A DNA stretch of 64,000 nt from an uncultured Bdellovibrionales bacterium (GTDB taxonomy: Bacteria > Patescibacteriota > Minisyncoccia > Moranbacterales > UBA1568). Position numbers and translations under genes: made by a program. This document shows positions 2,198 through 48,645 of the stretch, one piece after another. Under the pieces are notes generated by a model. It saw only the letters and a list, made by a program, of their open reading frames with translations. It had not been told where the DNA came from and did no database searches. The DNA is taken from the NCBI GenBank assembly GCA_964436855.1, contig CAYTED010000004.1, forward strand, positions 67,627 through 131,626. Reading direction: 5' to 3'. The first letter of the stretch is position 1, and each line of letters begins with the position of its first letter.

Positions 2198-2539
2198 TCA
2201 AGCGCGAGCGGAAGAGAGGGGTTTCAATCCGAGATGCTTTTCGATGCGGACAACGCGCTTCTCGACGGCGGAAGTGTGTTGGTAATTTCCGTCGACTTGG
2301 TTTTGGGTGCGATCGTCAATGCGGGTCACCTTGCAATCGAGGTCTTTGACTTGAGTGTCGAGACTATCGACTTTTGTTTCCAGAACATCAAAACGGCTTT
2401 CGAGACTATCGACTTTTGTTTCAAGAGAATCAATCCGACCATTCACAGACCGGAAACCAACACCCATCTGTTCATGGACACGATCAAATTCTCCTTTGAT
2501 CATCGCGGCAAGTTCATCGACGGTGATTTCGTTTGACAT
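2198..2539 (-). CDS. Hypothetical coiled-coil protein with an internal tandem repeat
   Basis: 113-aa ORF with heptad-like repeats (IDSLETKVDSLESRFDVLETKVDSLDTQVKDLD). A DNA tandem repeat lies at 2358-2424. An antisense ORF (2078..2536 +) carries a strong SD, so strand assignment is uncertain. Confidence 0.35.
   Translation of the reverse strand: MSNEITVDELAAMIKGEFDRVHEQMGVGFRSVNGRIDSLETKVDSLESRFDVLETKVDSLDTQVKDLDCKVTRIDDRTQNQVDGNYQHTSAVEKRVVRIEKHLGLKPLSSARA
2358..2424. repeat. Direct repeat of a 22-nt unit (cgagactatcgacttttgtttc) two copies 41 nt apart inside the coiled-coil ORF
   Basis: Read directly in the sequence at 2360-2381 and 2401-2422. Confidence 0.7.
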
Positions 2540-2728
2540 AGCTTCAGGTGAATATTGTTTCGTTCCTTTTCAGCTTACTCGTTTTGATTATCTTGTCAAA
2601 GAGAGGGTATGCGTGAGAAATGCGGGTGATAGGAGGTGAAAAGGTGCTGCCCGAGCAACACGGGGAAACCGCTTGTGGGAGGAGTAAGTCAGATACCGTG
2701 GTGAAAACGTGCCAATCTGGCAACAAAG

Positions 2729-2800
2729 TAGCCCTAAGGGGAATCGAACCCCTCTTTTCAGGATGAGAACCTGATGTCCTAGCCGATAGACGATAGGGCC
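2729..2800 (-). tRNA. tRNA-Glu (anticodon CTC)
   Basis: Manual cloverleaf: acceptor GGCCCTA/TAGGGCT with G1-U72, anticodon stem TCAGG/CCTGA, loop TTCTCAT, T-loop GGTTCGATTCC. No encoded CCA. Confidence 0.8.
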
Positions 2801-2818
2801 ATGCTTCAATTTTCAAAT

Positions 2819-2890
2819 GCAGGGGAGGAAGGAATCGGACCCTCGCTAGCGGATTTGGAGTCCGCTGTTCTACCACTAAACTACTCCCCC
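2819..2890 (-). tRNA. tRNA-Trp (anticodon CCA)
   Basis: Manual cloverleaf: acceptor GGGGGAG, anticodon stem GCGGA/TCCGC, loop CTCCAAA, T-loop TCCGATT. Confidence 0.8.
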
Positions 2891-2896
2891 GTTATT

Positions 2897-3553
2897 TTAT
2901 AATATCTCAGTCAGCTTCTTTATAATAAACATTAATTCCTTATAAATCCTAATATCTGAATACGTAACACTTACACAGCCCTGATAATTTTCTTTTTTAT
3001 TTTTTCCAGAGTTTTTCTTTTGGTATGACTTATGAAATTGCTCAACAGGAATACTTGTTACAGCTGACCAAAATCTAACCTGCTCTTCAATATTATGATA
3101 CTCATGCACATGAACAAGCGCTCTAAATTTTTTCTCGTCAAGATCAAAAGAGTCTCTAAACACTCGAAGGAAATATTTTATCATTACTGGATCCGCATTG
3201 ATAAAAGATACCGAAGCATTGCCATTATACTTTGACCCCTCACCCCAATAGAGCAACGCGCACGCAATACGAGAATCAATTCTCTGAGATCGAGAAGTAA
3301 AATATTCTTCTACTTTTCTTGCTATTTCCACATCCTCTGCTACTCTCTTTGCTTTATTTGTTTCAACCGCCTTCTTTCGTCCATTGACACCCAAATCACG
3401 TATCCTCTTCTGAGCTTTTCTTGATAACTTTACATCTCTCAACCACAAGCTTGTCGTGCTTTTTGCAATGCCCAACTGATCGCTTATCTCTCGAAAAGAA
3501 TATCCCTGTTTGCGAAGGGCGATCGCTTTCTTCTTTTCACTTCTTTCAAACAT
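2897..3553 (-). CDS. HTH-domain protein with a LAGLIDADG-like motif (putative homing-endonuclease-type nuclease); AT-rich insertion
   Basis: N-terminal helix-turn-helix (GYSFREISDQLGIAKSTTSLWLRD). Central LLYWGEGSKYNG resembles a LAGLIDADG endonuclease block. The gene is clearly more AT-rich than the flanks and lies between tRNA-Trp and rpmG. Confidence 0.4.
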   Translation of the reverse strand: MFERSEKKKAIALRKQGYSFREISDQLGIAKSTTSLWLRDVKLSRKAQKRIRDLGVNGRKKAVETNKAKRVAEDVEIARKVEEYFTSRSQRIDSRIACALLYWGEGSKYNGNASVSFINADPVMIKYFLRVFRDSFDLDEKKFRALVHVHEYHNIEEQVRFWSAVTSIPVEQFHKSYQKKNSGKNKKENYQGCVSVTYSDIRIYKELMFIIKKLTEIL

Positions 3554-7690: not shown

Positions 7691-8779
7691 ATGGACCAAG
7701 AAATACTCACCTCTATCGAACAGGAACTTCGAGAAATCGAGAGGATATTGTCGCTCCCGGAAACTCTGGGGGATCAAAAAAAACTCGCGACTCTCGGACG
7801 AAGAAAATCCGAACTGGATACGCTCCTCGCGCTTGTACGCGAGCTCAAATCGGCCGAAGAAACTATGCGGGATAATGCTCTTCTCACACAAGAAGATGAT
7901 CCCGACATCAAAGCGCTCGCTCTCGAAGAAAATATCACACTCGCCGAACGGATTCCCGTACTGGAAAAAGCCATCGAATCAGCGCTTCTTCCAAAAGATC
8001 CCCGAGATGAAAAAGATATTATTCTCGAAATTCGAGCCGGCGCGGGCGGCGATGAATCCTCTTTGTTTGCGTCAGAACTGTTTCGAATGTACGTTCACTA
8101 TGCCGAAAAGCAGGGTTGGAAAACAAGCATTCTTCACACCAATGAAACCGGCCTCGGCGGTATCAAAGAAATTATCGCCGAAATCTCGCAAGGATTTTCC
8201 GACACGCCGGTGTATCGAAAACTGAAATTTGAATCCGGCGTACACCGCGTGCAGCGCATACCCGAAACCGAAAAAGCCGGGCGCGTCCACACCTCGACCG
8301 TAACCGTCGCCGTTCTTCCTACCGCGGAAGAAATCGATATTCACATCAATCAGAACGATCTTCGTATCGACACCTTTTGCTCTTCCGGTCCGGGCGGGCA
8401 ATCGGTCAATACGACATACAGCGCCGTCCGTATCACACACCTTCCGACCGGACTCGTTGTTTCTTGTCAGGATGAAAAATCGCAAATAAAAAATCGCGAA
8501 AAAGCGATGAAAGTTCTCCGCTCTCGACTCCTCCAAGCCGAAGAAGAACGACGTGCGAAAGAACTCGGTGACCTTCGAAAAAACCAAATCGGCTCGGGAG
8601 ATCGAAGCGAAAAAATCCGAACCTACAACTTCCCGCAAGATCGTATTACCGATCACCGTATAAAGGAATCGTGGAGCAATCTCCCCGGAATACTTGACGG
8701 AGGCATCGGTCCCGTAGTCGATCGTCTCGAAGAAGAAGATATGCGACTCCGAATGGAAGAAAAAAAGTCTTCGTTATGA
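7691..8779 (+). CDS. prfA: Peptide chain release factor 1
   Basis: GGQ motif ([12 protein letters not shown]). The class-I RF domain 2 carries PET where RF1 normally has PAT/PVT. Start chosen at MDQEIL (ORF track 7625). The TGA stop overlaps the prmC ATG (ATGA). Confidence 0.85.
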
Positions 8780-9666
8780 CCCTTCAATCCGTTCTTCGTC
8801 GTTTTCGGACTTCCGTTTCTCCGGAAGACATCACTCTCCTTGCCGCGCACGCGATCAGACGCGACCGAGTATTTGTCTACGCGCATCCGGAACATACTCT
8901 CTCTCCGATTGAAAAAAATCGGCTCATTCGACTGCTCGAACGGAGAAAACGAAAAGAACCGATCGCGTATCTTCTCGGAAAAAAAGAATTTTTCGGACAT
9001 TCATTTCTCGTACATCGATCTGTTTTGATTCCGCGACCGGAAACGGAAACACTCGTCGAACACACGCTCGAGAAAATCAAAAACCAAACAAAAAAACAAT
9101 ATTCCATCCTCGATATCGGAACCGGAAGTGGAAATATCATTCTCTCGATCGCATCCGAATGGGAAAAATCACATTCGATATTCGACATTCAACATTCGAC
9201 ATTCGATTTCTTGGCGACTGACATTTCTTCTTCCGCGCTCGCCGTGGCAAGAAAAAATGCAAAACGACTCCTGAAAAAAAATCCCGTCGTCTTCCGGAAC
9301 AGCGATCTCTTGAACAATGTCCCGAAAAAATATTTTAAAAACAAGCACTGGATTATCACGGCCAATCTCCCCTACCTCTCCGGAACACTCTATCGAAATA
9401 CGGAAAAGGATGTTCGAGCATACGAACCGAAATCCGCGTTGTTTGCAAAAAATCGAGGAGCGGCCGTTATTCTGTCCCTCCTCCGGGAAATACGAGAAAA
9501 GGTTGCCGAATTCCATCCGGAATCGTTCTTTCTTATTTTGGAAATAAGCCCGGAACAAAGCTCTTTTCTCTTAAAAGAAGCCGGCAACATTCTTCAATCG
9601 AACAAGACGATTCTTCCCGACCTTTCGGGAAAAAATCGATTCATCGTTATCACATCGTCCGTGTAA
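8776..9666 (+). CDS. prmC: Release factor glutamine N5-methyltransferase PrmC/HemK
   Basis: SAM-binding DIGTGSGNI and an NPPY-like catalytic motif (ITANLPYL). prfA-prmC operon arrangement. Confidence 0.85.
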
Positions 9667-32293: not shown

Positions 32294-33243
32294 ATTGCCT
32301 CGGACAGAAAAAGACTGTCGAGAAGAAGCCGCGCGCCGGCATTGGTTTCCTGAAGCGTCTTCTTCACGCGAGAAACTTGTTCGAGAAGTAAATATCTCTT
32401 CCGAAGAACCGCTTCATCGGAAGATGCCTTCATATGTTCGCGCATACCGATAATCCACCAATCAAAAAGTTCGATCGCTTCGGGAACATTCCGTGAAAAT
32501 CGCTCCGAAAGATCGATCCTCTCTCGGATGGAAAGCGAGGCAATTCGAAAAAGAGAACGCAGCGTTTCTTTCCGTTCCGAAAAACGATCCGGGTTTTGAA
32601 GTGCTTCGATCACAAGACCCGGGCGGCCGAGTGAAGAAAAAAACGCTTCAACAGAAGGAGCGGAGGGAAAAAGCTGTCGTATCCCCGCTTCCACTTCTTT
32701 CGTGGCGACCGGGCCAAAAACAATGCGCTCCATACGCGAACGAACCGTCGGGAGAAGCTTGTCCGGCTCGCTTGTGACAAAAAGAATGACTCCGGTATCG
32801 GACGGTTCTTCCAGTGTTTTCAAAATGGCGTTCTGCGCCGGCTCAAGAAGTTTCTCCGCATCTCGGACAATCGCCACCCGAAACCTCCCTCGCGCTGGAT
32901 ACTGGGAGAGAAAGAGTCGAAGATCCCGAACGGACTCGACCGGTATTGATTTTTCCCTTATCACGCCTTTTTTTTCTTCACGTTCCGGTTCTAGCAAAAA
33001 AATATCCGAAACATCTTCCGTTTCGCCGTCGTCACGACCGCACAGAAGCCTCGCAAATTCCTGCGCAACAAGAAATTTCCCGATTCGATCCGGCCCGGAA
33101 AAAATATACGCGTGATTCGGCGCGCCACTTTTTGCTCTGGTTGCAAGGAAATTTCGTTGTTGTGCGTGACCGATAATGTACATACGAGAATCAAGAATAT
33201 TCGTACTCGGATACTTCAAAAAGAATGATTCAAAATTCATCAT
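32290..33243 (-). CDS. holB: DNA polymerase III delta-prime subunit
   Basis: Walker-A-like HAYIFSGPDRIGK, TLEEPS and TVRSRMERI motifs of the clamp-loader delta-prime. Confidence 0.75.
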   Translation of the reverse strand: MMNFESFFLKYPSTNILDSRMYIIGHAQQRNFLATRAKSGAPNHAYIFSGPDRIGKFLVAQEFARLLCGRDDGETEDVSDIFLLEPEREEKKGVIREKSIPVESVRDLRLFLSQYPARGRFRVAIVRDAEKLLEPAQNAILKTLEEPSDTGVILFVTSEPDKLLPTVRSRMERIVFGPVATKEVEAGIRQLFPSAPSVEAFFSSLGRPGLVIEALQNPDRFSERKETLRSLFRIASLSIRERIDLSERFSRNVPEAIELFDWWIIGMREHMKASSDEAVLRKRYLLLEQVSRVKKTLQETNAGARLLLDSLFLSEAI

Positions 33244-34355
33244 TCCTGATTTACGAGCATGTGTATTTCTCTTCGAAATCGCTCTTCCGAAAATTGCGCC
33301 GCGGCCCGCTTCATCTCCGCTTCATTATATTCCCCCTCATTCGCGAGAAACCGACGCACGCCATCCGAAAGAATTTCCGTCGTCTGCGCAAAAAAGAACT
33401 CTCCTGTTTTCCCCGGTTCAACGATTTCCTTTGCGCCGCCTTCACTATAGGCAATAACCGGCGTTCCGAATGAAAGCGCCTCTGTGATCGCAAGGCCGAA
33501 ATCCTCCTCCGCCGGATGAATCAATGCCCGCGCCTCGCGGTATCGTTTGGCCAACATTTCCTCTGACTGCCAACCGATACATCGAACGGTTTTCCCCGCT
33601 TTTTTCTCGAGTCGTTTTCGATCCGGACCAATACCAACAATGACAAGCGGGAGTTCAAGTTTATTCATCGCTTCAATCGCAATATCGATTCGTTTCGCTT
33701 CGGTCAATCGCGATACGATAAGAAAATATTGTTTTCTCTCTTTTTTTTCTTCATCATCTCCCCTTCCTATTTGTTTTACGGCCGGGTATACCACCTTCGC
33801 TTCGCCCCGATAGTATTTCCGAATCCGTTCCGCCGTGTACCGCGAATTTGCCACCAACACATCCGGTCGGTCCGCCGCTTGTTTGTCCCACACGCGAAGA
33901 TACGAAAGAAACAGACGGCCAACGGTTCGCAGTCCGAACGGCAATCGAAGCGCCGCGAAGTACCGCTCATTTTCATCCCATACATATCGCATCGGCGAAT
34001 GAAGATACGCGATATGTTTCGTATGAAGTCGCGTGACCACTCCTTTCGACCACGCGCCCGATGACGAAATCACCGTATCAAATTCCCGCAGATCAAGCGA
34101 TTCGATTGCCGAGGGATAAAACGGGAGAAGCAGTCGATACCGCTTCCGGAGCCATTTCGGAAATTTCTGAACATATGACGTGCGAATATCGCAATTCGGA
34201 AAATGCCGCTTCACGACATTCGAATCGGAAAGCAAGGTATACACCGGCGCCTCGGGATACATTCGTATAAAATCCTGAAGCACTCGCTCGGCACCACCAT
34301 ACGAGACAAGAAAGTCGTGAACGATTGCAATATTTTGTTTATTTCCCTCTTTCAT
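33240..34355 (-). CDS. Glycosyltransferase family 4 (GT-B)
   Basis: C-terminal EDFGLAITEALSFGTPVIAYSEGGAKEIV (E-x7-E region). ORF track to 34400. Start set at the ATGA overlap with the upstream stop. Confidence 0.7.
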   Translation of the reverse strand: MKEGNKQNIAIVHDFLVSYGGAERVLQDFIRMYPEAPVYTLLSDSNVVKRHFPNCDIRTSYVQKFPKWLRKRYRLLLPFYPSAIESLDLREFDTVISSSGAWSKGVVTRLHTKHIAYLHSPMRYVWDENERYFAALRLPFGLRTVGRLFLSYLRVWDKQAADRPDVLVANSRYTAERIRKYYRGEAKVVYPAVKQIGRGDDEEKKERKQYFLIVSRLTEAKRIDIAIEAMNKLELPLVIVGIGPDRKRLEKKAGKTVRCIGWQSEEMLAKRYREARALIHPAEEDFGLAITEALSFGTPVIAYSEGGAKEIVEPGKTGEFFFAQTTEILSDGVRRFLANEGEYNEAEMKRAAAQFSEERFRREIHMLVNQE

Positions 34356-35527
34356 CGCTCTTTCAAAAGAAATGTAATTTCCCGCGCGCACTTCCCCCAC
34401 GAAAACCGACCCCTATTCTTCAGCCCTTTCTGCAGTATATCATCCCGAAAATCCTTTTCCTGCAGTACTCTTCGGATTCCTTCCGCAATCGAACGTGCAT
34501 CAAACGGATCCGCATACACCGCACCATCCCCACCCACCTCCGGAAGCGACGAAGTTTTTGACGTTACGATCGGCACTGCAACCGACTGCGCCTCAAGCAC
34601 CGGAATACCGAATCCCTCATAGAGCGATGGAAACAGAAACACCTCGGCATTTTTTAGAAGCTCCCACTTTTCTTCTTCCGTCACATAACCAAGTTCAATG
34701 ATATCGTTTTGATTCCTGATTCTTGATTCCTGATTCTTGATTCTTTCGTATCCATACCCCGGCTTTCCCGCAAGCACCAACCGGTGCGGAATGTGGTGTT
34801 TTTCTTTCAATATTTCAAACGCCTCAATAATTCGCCCGACATTTTTCCGTTCCTCAATCCGCCCGATAAAGAGCAGGAATTTTGAATTTTGAATTTTGAA
34901 TTTCGATTGAATGTTTAATTCTGAAATTTCTGAATTCTGATTTGATTCGAAATTCGAAATTCGAAATTCGAAATTATTATTATACCCTTCATACACCACC
35001 CGTATCTTCTCCTCCGCTACACCATACAACCGCATCAAATCCGATTTTGTATTCTCCGACACCGCGATAATCCTTTCCGCCCATCGGCATGAAAACCAAA
35101 TCGAGAGTCGCATATACCACCGCTCCCACAGGGAATATGCCTCCGGACAAAACTCATACTCAAGTCCGTGAACCGTGACTATCGTCCGGCGCGGATGAAC
35201 AAGCGGCACCGTATGCGCCGGCACAAACAAAACATCGGGTCTGTGAACAAGCATTTCAAGCGACAATCGAAACTGCGTCCAAAATCGCGGCGCCCACAAC
35301 CCTCTCACTTGCCAATGCTCCGGCAATTCAAAATCAATCTCCGGAAGGATTGTTTTAGGTTGCACGTTTTGTATGATAAATTTTTTCCTCACATACAAAA
35401 CCACCTGTTCATCTTTCAGTTCCTTGCGCAGATGTTTGATGACTTGATAACTATATTCCTCAATTCCTGTTCGTTTTTTCAAAAACGCACGCGACGCATC
35501 GATGCCAATGATCATATCAAAATGCAA
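34352..35527 (-). CDS. Glycosyltransferase family 4 (GT-B) with in-frame low-complexity tandem-repeat insertions
   Basis: LFPSLYEGFGIPVLEAQSVAVPIVTS GT4 motif. Inter-domain insertions NNNFEFRISNFESNQNSEISELNIQSKFKIQNSKF and IKNQESRIRNQN are encoded by DNA microsatellites. Confidence 0.7.
   Translation of the reverse strand: MHFDMIIGIDASRAFLKKRTGIEEYSYQVIKHLRKELKDEQVVLYVRKKFIIQNVQPKTILPEIDFELPEHWQVRGLWAPRFWTQFRLSLEMLVHRPDVLFVPAHTVPLVHPRRTIVTVHGLEYEFCPEAYSLWERWYMRLSIWFSCRWAERIIAVSENTKSDLMRLYGVAEEKIRVVYEGYNNNFEFRISNFESNQNSEISELNIQSKFKIQNSKFLLFIGRIEERKNVGRIIEAFEILKEKHHIPHRLVLAGKPGYGYERIKNQESRIRNQNDIIELGYVTEEEKWELLKNAEVFLFPSLYEGFGIPVLEAQSVAVPIVTSKTSSLPEVGGDGAVYADPFDARSIAEGIRRVLQEKDFRDDILQKGLKNRGRFSWGKCAREITFLLKER
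34690..34980. repeat. Cluster of short tandem repeats inside the GT4 gene
   Basis: Units tgattc(c/t)x5 (34711-34743), aattttgx3 (34878-34899) and ttcgaaax4 (34946-34975). AT-rich relative to the flanks. Confidence 0.8.
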
Positions 35528-35529
35528 AT

Positions 35530-35567
35530 ATCAAATATAAAAATTATGGAGTCTCGTTTCACGAGAC
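35530..35567 (-). terminator. Putative rho-independent terminator downstream of mreB (stem GTCTCG/CGAGAC; T-rich tail on the minus strand)
   Basis: Hairpin at 35551-35567. The minus-strand tail is tccataatttttatattt. Confidence 0.4.
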
Positions 35568-35616
35568 ACAACAATTTTTCATTTTGATTTTTTATTTTTT
35601 ATCTTGCTTGGCGAAT

Positions 35617-42537: not shown

Positions 42538-42585
42538 TTTGTATCAAAATTAAAAAATCAAAATAAAAATTGAAATTAATTCCTG
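42538..42585. repeat. Partial copy of the MITE-like family B element (atcaaaattaaaaaatcaaaat...)
   Basis: Similar to the left arms of the elements at 43815-43925 and 48513-48640. Confidence 0.4.
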
Positions 42586-43817: not shown

Positions 43818-43925
43818 ATCAAAATTTAAAAATCAAAATGGAAAATGACAGATCAAAATTCAAAATGTTGGATGTATGAAAAAATTTTGTATTTTACATT
43901 GTCATTTTGATTTTTGATATTTGCA
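43815..43925. repeat. MITE-like inverted-repeat element, family B, copy 2
   Basis: aaaaatcaaaatggaaaatgacag ... ctgtcattttgatttttgat read in the sequence. Homologous to 48513-48640. Confidence 0.6.
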
Positions 43926-47509: not shown

Positions 47510-48511
47510 TTACTTTGTAACGAGAGCGGCCATCTCCACAAGACGATTCGAATACCCCCATTCATTATCGTACCACGCAATCACCTTCACAAAATCCCCA
47601 TCAATCACCTTTGTCAACGAAAGATCAACGATACTCGATCGCGGATCGCCAATAAAATCCGAGGAAACAAGCGGCTCTTTCGTTACTCCAAGTACGCCAT
47701 GGTAACTCGGATCTTTCGATGCCTCCGTCAACGCAGCATTCACTTCTTCAGCCGTTGTTTTTTTCTTCAAAAGAAAGGTGAAGTCCGTCACCGAAACAAC
47801 AATCGTGGGCACCCGAAGCGAAAGCCCATCAAACAACCCTTGAAGCGACGGCATCACTTCGGTAACAGCAATCGCTGCGCCGGTCGTCGTCGGAACAATA
47901 TTCTGCGCCGCCGCGCGGGCACGACGCATATCTTTATGTGGACCATCTTGCAGATTCTGATCCTGCGTATACGAATGTATTGTTGTCATCATCGCCTTTG
48001 CGATACCAAACTTCGACTCAAGCACTCGCGCCACCGGTGCAAGACAATTGGTCGTACACGATGCGTTAGAAACAACCACTTCATCCTCATACGCCCGATC
48101 ATTCACGCCAACAAGGTATGTCTTTACATCATCGCCCCCGCCTTTTGCAGGAGCCGAAAGCACAACTTTCTTTGCACCGGATTGCAAATGCTTCGCAGCG
48201 GAATCTTTTTCTACGAATCGGCCCGTGCATTCAAGCACCACATCAACATCAAGCACGGCCCATGGAAGCTTGGTTGGATCCGGTTCCGAAAACACCGGGA
48301 TACGCTTCTCGTCGACAACAAGGGCGTCGTTTTCGACAGAAACACTCCGGCGATACGCTCCATACGCGGTATCGTGAAGAAGAAGATGCGCAAGCGTTTT
48401 CGCATCCGTCAGATCATTTATTCCAACAATTTCCATATCATCTCGCTCAAGCGCGATTTTTAATGCTGCACGACCGATGCGACCAAATCCATTTATAGCT
48501 ACTCGAATCAT
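47510..48511 (-). CDS. gap: Glyceraldehyde-3-phosphate dehydrogenase
   Basis: INGFGRIGR NAD-binding motif and catalytic SCTTNCLAP. Confidence 0.9.
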   Translation of the reverse strand: MIRVAINGFGRIGRAALKIALERDDMEIVGINDLTDAKTLAHLLLHDTAYGAYRRSVSVENDALVVDEKRIPVFSEPDPTKLPWAVLDVDVVLECTGRFVEKDSAAKHLQSGAKKVVLSAPAKGGGDDVKTYLVGVNDRAYEDEVVVSNASCTTNCLAPVARVLESKFGIAKAMMTTIHSYTQDQNLQDGPHKDMRRARAAAQNIVPTTTGAAIAVTEVMPSLQGLFDGLSLRVPTIVVSVTDFTFLLKKKTTAEEVNAALTEASKDPSYHGVLGVTKEPLVSSDFIGDPRSSIVDLSLTKVIDGDFVKVIAWYDNEWGYSNRLVEMAALVTK

Positions 48512-48512
48512 A

Positions 48513-48640
48513 GTTTCAAAATCAAAATTTAAAAATCAAAGTGAAAAATGACAATCAAAAGTTCAGGATGGACAAGCGAGAAAACCCGAAAAATTTTTCA
48601 TTTTGCATTGTCATTTTTATTTTTGATATTTTCATTTTAC
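48513..48640. repeat. MITE-like inverted-repeat element, family B, copy 3
   Basis: caaaatttaaaaatcaaagtgaaaaatgacaatcaaaag ... cattgtcatttttatttttgatatttt read in the sequence. Confidence 0.6.
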
Positions 48641-48645
48641 ATTTT

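Follow-up and report, generated by a model that had tools for sequence, protein, structure and literature searches.

Heptanucleotide repeat arrays at fixed structural sites of a GT4 glycosyltransferase gene: a probable contingency-type locus in Candidatus Moranbacteria

The 64-kb stretch of DNA analyzed here (the window) carries on its minus strand a gene for a GT4 family glycosyltransferase, GT4a, whose coding sequence contains three in-frame arrays of tandem 7-nucleotide (nt) repeats. GT4a is probably a heptanucleotide contingency-type locus, at which slippage within the arrays switches the enzyme on and off and alters its length, the allele in the window being in the ON state. The features of such a locus are divided between the window and its relatives: an in-frame repeat with a unit that is not a triplet is present in the window gene, while alleles differing in unit number and a switch between full-length and truncated product are observed in orthologues. 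The repeat phenomenon belongs to the gene family and extends beyond the single gene of the window. Names of homologues place the organism in Candidatus Moranbacteria, Patescibacteria.

Heptanucleotide Arrays in the Window Gene

Arrays were called with Tandem Repeats Finder (TRF) and a strict lag scan. The gene and its arrays are:

34352..35515, minus strand: GT4a coding sequence, encoding a GT-B retaining glycosyltransferase of 387 amino acids (aa); the allele is intact (ON).
34945..34975, minus strand: array 1a, TRF ATTCGAA x4.4 with 100% matches; coding-strand unit AATTTCG.
34877..34903, minus strand: array 1b, TRF GAATTTT x3.9 with 100% matches; coding-strand unit AAATTCA.
34709..34745, minus strand: array 2, TRF TTGATTC x5.3 with 86% matches; coding-strand unit GAATCAA/GAATCAG.

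The open reading frame (ORF) extends over 34352..35527 of the minus strand (391 aa from a TTG at 35527). The publicly called product, P0001 (387 aa), is 100% identical to it and starts at an ATG at 35515, four codons after the TTG. With the Pfam gathering scores as cut-offs, both GT4 domains were recognized, i.e., Glyco_transf_4 at residues 21-183 (E 4e-17, 63.2 bits against a cut-off of 28.5) and Glycos_transf_1 at residues 206-368 (E 1e-34, 119.6 bits against 26.4). The AlphaFold model, for which 25 orthologues served as input, shows two Rossmann-like domains and a linker, with a mean predicted local distance difference test (pLDDT) score of 87, and Foldseek matched it to the solved GT4 enzymes MshA, BshA, GlgM, HepE, PimB' and WaaG (template modelling score about 0.7, E 1e-15 to 1e-20). 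The C-terminal domain contains the E-x7-E motif, within YEGFGIPVLEAQ, of which E300 and E308 are invariant in the 25 orthologues. The product is therefore a GT4 family retaining glycosyltransferase with a GT-B fold, as had been proposed in an earlier reading of the sequence alone (the sequence-only reading). A specific enzyme name was considered and given up in favor of the generic one, since no NCBIfam equivalog reached its cut-off (best 89 bits, 260 needed) and no solved structure is close.

At the start of the linker between the domains array 1a is translated into NFEFRISNFES, and at its end array 1b into SKFKIQNSKF, which is followed directly by the first C-terminal-domain strand (LLFIGR). 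Together they form site 1 (residues 179-213), which joins the last strand of the N-terminal domain to the first strand of the C-terminal domain and is the only long stretch of the model with pLDDT below 50 (residues 181-204). Array 2 encodes ERIKNQESRIRNQ, a surface helix in the C-terminal Rossmann domain (site 2, residues 257-269, helix H256-265) that follows the second strand of that domain and is modelled with pLDDT of about 90. The sequence-only reading had described AT-rich, in-frame tandem repeats between the two Rossmann halves. The three near-perfect 7-nt arrays recovered by TRF are these repeats, and the peptides it quoted are true in-frame translations. The location it gave is right for the arrays at 34877-34975, which in the GT-B model fall in the disordered connection, but not for its tgattcy array (array 2), which is part of a confidently modelled helix of the C-terminal domain and thus lies outside the linker.

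The effect of the arrays on protein length differs between the two sites. The window linker is 47 aa long, against 28-30 aa in the shortest orthologues, which makes it about 17-19 aa longer. Array 2 adds no length, as the site 2 segment measures 34 aa in 119 of 120 orthologues; here and below, protein-level counts refer to the 120 best homologues (57-69% identity), the self-match P0001 apart.

In the strict lag scan all tandem tracts of the window have a period of 7. There are four of them (starting at about 9173, 34709, 34874, and 34942), and three lie inside GT4a. Composition-preserving shuffles of the window gave no tandem tracts in the same scan, so the arrays are far beyond chance expectation.

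Three units translate into one 7-residue repeat, i.e., NFEFRIS (AATTTCG), KFKIQNS (AAATTCA), and IKNQESR (AATCAAG). As a 7-nt unit does not fill whole codons, the frame is shifted and the enzyme truncated (OFF) whenever one or two units are added or removed. A simulated change of 1 or 2 units in any GT4a array of the window gave a product of 197-282 aa, a change of three units one of 380 or 394 aa, and a gain in array 1a, when offset by a loss in array 1b, restored 387 aa with an altered linker.

Arrays in Orthologous Genes

7-nt arrays are also found in GT4 orthologues throughout Candidatus Moranbacteria (50-69% identity), where they occupy the same three sites but differ in unit. At the DNA level, strict arrays with periods of 4-12 were scanned for in 41 orthologue genes. 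Period 7 accounted for all 47 strict arrays that were recovered (0 at periods 4-6 and 8-12), and each of the 47 falls at reference residues 43-55, 179-214, or 256-274. The sequence-only reading had allowed that the orthologues might all lack the repeats; the opposite is the case.

At the protein level, peptides with a 7-residue period are found at both site 1 and site 2 among the 120 homologues, and they pair with units in the same manner as in the window: NFQFPIS from AATTTCC, KFKIQNS from AAATTCA, IKNQESR from ATCAAGA, KLQATSY from AAGCTAC, and LQIADCR from TGCAGAT. At the position of array 1a the orthologues have AATTTCC, AATTTTC, AATTCCA, AATATCG, and others, at site 2 ATTCAAG, AAGCTAC, TGCAGAT, AAATTCA, and others, while the array 1b unit AAATTCA and its peptide are common to many of them. 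A specific binding motif was considered as well, and rejected because the units are too diverse (AATTTCG, AGTTACC, GAATGGA, TGCAGAT, and others); the period alone is conserved. The occurrence of arrays at the same three sites with changing unit sequence across Moranbacteria points to a contingency-type locus that has been maintained for long, and their near-perfect state in most of the orthologues examined, despite protein divergence to about 50% identity, points to ongoing slippage and hence to a steady supply of frameshifts.

The third site lies in the N-terminal domain:

35348..35386, minus strand: site 3, a beta-hairpin of the N-terminal domain, KKFIIQNVQPKTI (model strands E37-49 and E52-56).

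In the window this site has decayed and no DNA repeat is left. Arrays of period 7 are present there (reference residues 43-55) in the five loci L012, L109, L110, L115, and L134, and orthologue peptides are 7-aa periodic, e.g., KLEIRNWKLEIR and KLTTNNLRLTTK. The site 3 segment is 27 aa long in 90 of the 120 orthologues and 15 aa in 17, in which the site is absent.

It is conceivable that the peptides themselves are what is selected, with 7-residue modules as functional parts and a linker length that tunes activity or acceptor choice, as the heptads of the O-acetyltransferase NeuO of Escherichia coli K1 prophage CUS-3 do. NeuO activity rises with heptad number (PMC3046976). The preserved length and confident helix of site 2, the strands of the site 3 hairpin, which equal two repeat periods, and the linker lengths, which range over 28-57 aa with peaks at 30 and 37-38 aa, would all agree with this. 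Selection on the peptide would however give at most a 21-nt periodicity with synonymous differences, and not perfect 7-nt repeats. The units, and hence the peptides, differ freely between species, the linker is predicted to be disordered, and frameshifted alleles (see below) are left unexplained. We therefore consider a function at the protein level improbable as the cause of the arrays, and slippage within a contingency-type locus the better account of their perfect 7-nt period.

As a separate observation, inserts that resemble translated GC-rich palindromic repeats (SGLDPESRAKHAGEGLDSRFHGNDN; CHSERSEEPRN...IPRQARDD) are seen at the protein level in the C-terminal domain of P0117/P0205 and in the linker of P0021, which suggests that further kinds of repetitive DNA may be translated in the GT4a family.

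The density of arrays was determined over 37 non-redundant Moranbacteria loci, 323 kb in total:

GT4a: 42 arrays in 42 kb.
GT4b, the neighboring paralogue: 8 arrays in 34 kb.
MreB, MurA, and HolB together: 0 arrays in 73 kb.
Everything else: 7 arrays in 173 kb.

GT4a is thus about 25-fold denser in arrays than the other DNA of its loci. In the loci of distant GT4 relatives (Chloroflexi and others) no period-7 tract was found in 161 kb, and the loci of other candidate phyla had one in 185 kb.

Unit-Number Differences Between Natural Alleles

In two species, alleles that are out of frame were verified at the DNA level. The first is the P0014/P0136 cluster, whose proteins share about 66% identity with that of the window. 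Here (AATTCCA)x4 and an intact ORF of 376 aa are found in seven contigs (L083-L089) that come from different samples, whereas L081 and L082, from other samples, have (AATTCCA)x3. Apart from these 7 nt the gene has no indel, and with x3 the frame falls into pieces of 215/229 aa and 159 aa. The L081 and L082 alleles differ from one another at the 5' end and by one single-nucleotide polymorphism. The second species is represented by identical DNA from three samples (L153-L155), in which the N-terminal part is in one frame and a complete, undamaged C-terminal part in another. One unit added to either linker array of L153, (GAATCAG)n or (AAATTCA)n, restores an ORF of 364 aa, and this one out-of-frame allele dominates in all three samples.

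Differences of three units were found too. In cluster 7, strains of at least 90% identity have linkers whose lengths are exactly 7 aa apart. L147 and L149 (92% nucleotide identity) differ by a 21-nt indel at the linker, where local identity is 0.55, compared with more than 0.9 in most of the remaining 60-nt blocks of the gene. The proposal of the sequence-only reading that hypermutable repeats could mediate length or phase variation is thus supported by orthologue alleles that differ by one unit or by 21 nt.

Three further truncated products, P0371 and P0391 at site 1 and P0372 at site 2, are encoded on contigs of 14-39 kb, and at the protein level their tails look like the conserved downstream sequence read in a shifted frame. 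This count does not include P0400 and P0401. Other candidates were discarded. P0163 (323 aa, 20 contigs) seemed to lack part of the N terminus, but its DNA is identical to that of the full-length allele and the difference is one of start-codon calling. An apparent frame switch in L016 is due to a run of N in the scaffold, and the truncated P0379, P0417, and P0381 (at an A-run) are unrelated to arrays and were not counted.

A distant relative (L144, positions 2501-3452, 39-51% identity) has GT4a split exactly at the inter-domain linker, into ORFs of 153 and 166 aa that overlap in ATGGAGTATAA, with no repeat present. The locus may encode a GT-B enzyme made of two polypeptides, or may be a pseudogene. 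It was not accepted as an indication of slippage, as it lacks a repeat, and it shows only that the linker is a natural break point.

These alleles also bear on a neutral explanation, according to which the arrays are a by-product of a lineage-specific 7-nt mutational bias acting at tolerant sites, frameshifted alleles being deleterious or on their way to become pseudogenes. It fits with the occurrence of arrays in intergenic DNA and in prmC (see below), with their confinement to structurally permissive places and with the ON state of most orthologues. Heptamer repeats are also over-represented in many bacteria, for which an explanation by polymerase footprint has been proposed (PMC4692102). 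It accounts less well for GT4a being about 25 times denser in arrays than DNA of the same loci that holds dozens of loop-bearing genes, and for OFF alleles that are otherwise fully intact and of which one dominates three samples. Near-perfect arrays moreover imply a constant supply of frameshifts, and selection would be expected to interrupt such repeats. A neutral origin is possible but, in our judgment, rather unlikely. The sequence-only reading had offered a related alternative, a degenerate insertion tolerated in a linker. As to location (a disordered loop and a surface helix) this was well founded, but near-perfect repeats, presence throughout the lineage and frameshifted alleles all remain unexplained by it. 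The preferred explanation is still a switch driven by slippage.

Palindromes, Hairpins and Arrays Outside GT4a

Other features of the window that are linked to heptamers or adjoin GT4a are:

34878..34975, no strand assigned: imperfect palindrome of 98 nt, made up of arrays 1b and 1a on either side of a small AT-rich hairpin.
35516..35602, no strand assigned: intergenic inverted repeat between mreB and GT4a, with arms of 42 nt that are 74% complementary.
33240..34355, minus strand: GT4b, the adjoining GT4 paralogue (Pfam), with no array in the window copy.
9171..9206, plus strand: prmC heptamer array, TRF ACATTCG x5.1, in frame; the only other strong array in the window.

The two linker arrays could alternatively be seen as a nucleic-acid element, i.e., a hairpin-forming insert (a miniature mobile element, a regulatory RNA or DNA structure or an antisense RNA) that is in frame by chance. 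The arms of the 98-nt palindrome (34878-34926 and 34927-34975) are 78% complementary, and its RNA fold reaches -39 kcal/mol (z -6.2, with G-U pairs) on the plus (antisense) strand and -23.8 kcal/mol (z -4.6) on the mRNA strand. Similar modules of array, hairpin and array exist in intergenic DNA, and GC-rich hairpins of 21 nt are present or absent within the arrays of otherwise identical genes. Among orthologues, however, the array at position 1a varies and the one at 1b stays AAATTCA, so that the pairing is not conserved and shows no covariation. In some of them, e.g., L083, the two arrays are in direct orientation, and the arrays of sites 2 and 3 are not palindromic. Rfam gave sub-threshold hairpin hits only and no family, and a terminator-like T-run is absent on either side of 34878-34975, including after the hairpin. 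On these grounds (no covariation, direct orientation in some orthologues, Rfam hits below threshold) a hairpin conserved at the linker as RNA or DNA was rejected, and a nucleic-acid element as the reason for the arrays is very improbable. No other copy of the palindrome was found in the window, where the unit 7-mers AATTTCG and CGAAATT occur elsewhere as scattered single copies only.

The 21-nt GC-rich hairpins (core CCTGCC-N4-5-GGCAGG) are three heptamers long and stand in phase within the arrays of related loci (L152 722-738, L137 446-462, L132 3223-3238, L083 302-317, L105 2378-2393). None is present in the window. GT4a of L151 and L152 is 100% identical save for a 21-nt hairpin in L152. 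The possibility that heptamers are target-site duplications of the hairpin was rejected, since the filled L152 and the empty L151 have equal numbers of flanking units. Peptide footprints of hairpins (PPAGG, RLPDGQ, AGPRQG) are found at the linker in about 12 of the 120 orthologues.

The inverted repeat between mreB and GT4a (35516..35602) has AT-rich arms with 7-nt periodicity, which flank a GC hairpin (GTCTCG-TTTCA-CGAGAC), and TRF reported rows of period 7 at 35514-35542 and 35574-35602. In orthologous loci, too, heptamer arrays occur a short distance upstream of GT4a (L001 at 8936, L003 at 9932). Four AT-rich intergenic elements of the window (35516-35602, 43818-43925, 48505-48645, and 42543-42569) have 7/14-nt periodicity and inverted symmetry and share the motif ATATCAAAAT(T/G)NAAANATCAAA. 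In three of the four (35516, 43818, 48505) it lies at or within a few bases of a minus-strand start codon, and immediately ahead of the ATG the minus strand has the sequence ATTTTGAT. On the plus strand of the window TCAAAAT is found 30 times, with 6 expected. These intergenic period-7/14 elements may be promoter or leader elements.

GT4b orthologues can have heptamer arrays in an inter-domain linker of their own (L003 13575-13607, GAAATCC x4.7; L012 12257-12289, AACAATC x4.7). prmC (8776-9666) encodes a release-factor glutamine methyltransferase, and its array encodes the loop after the S-adenosylmethionine-binding motif; 7-aa-periodic peptides are found at the same loop in about 8 of 120 PrmC orthologues. 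The neighborhood murA, mreB, GT4a, GT4b, holB, and ftsQ is common to the relatives. Together with membership of the GT4 family it suggests that a cell-surface glycan, which the sequence-only reading had named, is the putative substrate class of GT4a.

Discussion

The mechanism we propose is as follows. Heptanucleotide repeats would slip during replication and thereby change their unit number. The arrays would occupy places of the GT-B enzyme that tolerate arbitrary sequence, that is, the disordered linker, a surface helix and in orthologues also the N-terminal beta-hairpin. A net change that is not a multiple of three units would turn the enzyme OFF, and gain or loss of three units would add or remove exactly seven residues and give a linker-length variant. 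Switching is presumably frequent and reversible and would be expected to change the surface glycan. The near-perfect arrays, their roughly 25-fold concentration in GT4a and the otherwise intact OFF alleles suggest that the switch is maintained by selection, conceivably against phage or in host attachment.

Several points weigh against this reading. No alternative allele was found for the window organism itself in the collections searched; neither look-ups of the exact GT4a and MreB proteins nor a scan of metagenomes with P0001 gave a second copy of its GT4a, and the closest relative in the scan is 66-67% identical. OFF alleles were verified in DNA for just the two species described, and each of the 37 species-level orthologues from the loci retrieved is ON. 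The evidence consists of metagenome consensus sequences, which are silent on reversibility and rate. The arrays are short (4-5 units) and located mid-gene, while most phase-variable repeats that are known exceed this length and lie close to the 5' end, and coding sequences as a rule keep repeats out of the middle of a protein (PMC3315296). Since the housekeeping gene prmC has an array, arrays are not confined to envelope genes. Finally, the exclusive 7-nt period with many unrelated units goes beyond generic slippage.

The exclusive period of 7 and the 21-nt hairpins in phase with it leave room for a dedicated repeat-generating process. It is tempting to speculate that Moranbacteria possess a process that writes and rewrites 7-nt units and inserts 21-nt hairpins in phase at fixed sites of envelope glycosyltransferase genes, building both translated pieces of protein and heritable switches, although we regard this as unlikely. 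If true, it would be an unrecognized form of programmed variability in the candidate phyla radiation, independent of the cyanobacterial heptamer and small-dispersed-repeat systems though analogous to them.

Members of Patescibacteria (the candidate phyla radiation) are ultra-small bacteria, for the most part uncultured, with few regulators and a presumed life in attachment to host cells. No report of repeat-driven phase variation in Patescibacteria or Moranbacteria was found in the literature searched. If the proposed switch is real and conserved across this major group of Patescibacteria, GT4a would, as far as these searches show, be the first contingency locus described in Patescibacteria, and variation of the surface glycan in relation to phage or host attachment would be a lasting selective theme in this group, at a locus that adjoins genes for cell wall and division. 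The arrays also provide a clean natural case of simple repeats becoming folded protein segments, and sharpen the old question why a unit of 7 nt is so frequent among bacterial repeats.

Comparison With Known Systems

The closest analogue is NeuO, in which the (AAGACTC)n repeat gives an ON state only at multiples of three units, each three units encode one disordered RLKTQDS heptad, and gain or loss of single units is common (PMC3046976). GT4a has in common with it a heptanucleotide repeat within the coding sequence, the translation of three units into one heptad and the dependence of the full-length product on frame. NeuO, a hexapeptide-repeat acetyltransferase with a left-handed beta-helix, modifies a surface polysaccharide, and it has a single array of one fixed unit, two nucleotides after the start codon and in 2-93 copies. 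GT4a in contrast has a GT-B fold and three short mid-gene arrays (4-5 copies) whose units vary by site and species, in an arrangement conserved across the orthologues examined. As its arrays are internal, short and placed in a GT-B enzyme, GT4a is an analogue of the NeuO-type poly-psi repeat and not a member.

Glycosyltransferase contingency loci of Haemophilus, Neisseria, and Campylobacter switch in and out of frame by slipped-strand events, and their populations contain both states. Most classical contingency repeats have units of 1-5 nt and form long tracts close to the 5' end, and they are known from cultured pathogens with measured rates. The repeats of GT4a are unlike these always of 7 nt, short and internal, and belong to an uncultured, groundwater-type member of Patescibacteria.

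The heptamers of cyanobacteria and Xanthomonas (STRR; GGGAATC, GGGGAYT) are often arranged in inverted pairs and vary in length and sequence between close relatives (PMC4692102). They resemble the present arrays in being a lineage-specific excess of 7-nt repeats. They are essentially intergenic and G-rich, with few fixed units, whereas the Moranbacteria arrays have many AT-rich units and their main load is translated within coding sequence.

Two kinds of inserted element also invite comparison. The palindromic elements of Rickettsia that Ogata et al. described in 2000 are reportedly inserted in frame in protein genes. The likeness lies in repetitive DNA placed in frame at surface-permissive positions, and the linker insert of the window is likewise palindromic. 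The Rickettsia elements are copies of one dispersed element of 100-150 bp found at many loci, while in GT4a the units differ between sites and species, their number varies and the period alone is conserved. The small dispersed repeats of Nostoc, from the work of Elhai et al. in 2008, are said to be mobile hairpins of 21-27 nt. The 21-nt GC-rich hairpins that are present or absent within arrays of Moranbacteria loci, though not in the window, are like them by description only.

A switch driven by slippage is accordingly known in kind from other bacteria. What is new is the combination, in uncultured Patescibacteria, of multiple internal heptamer arrays at fixed structural sites, conserved in the GT4a orthologues examined with turnover of their units, and with an exclusive period of 7 nt.

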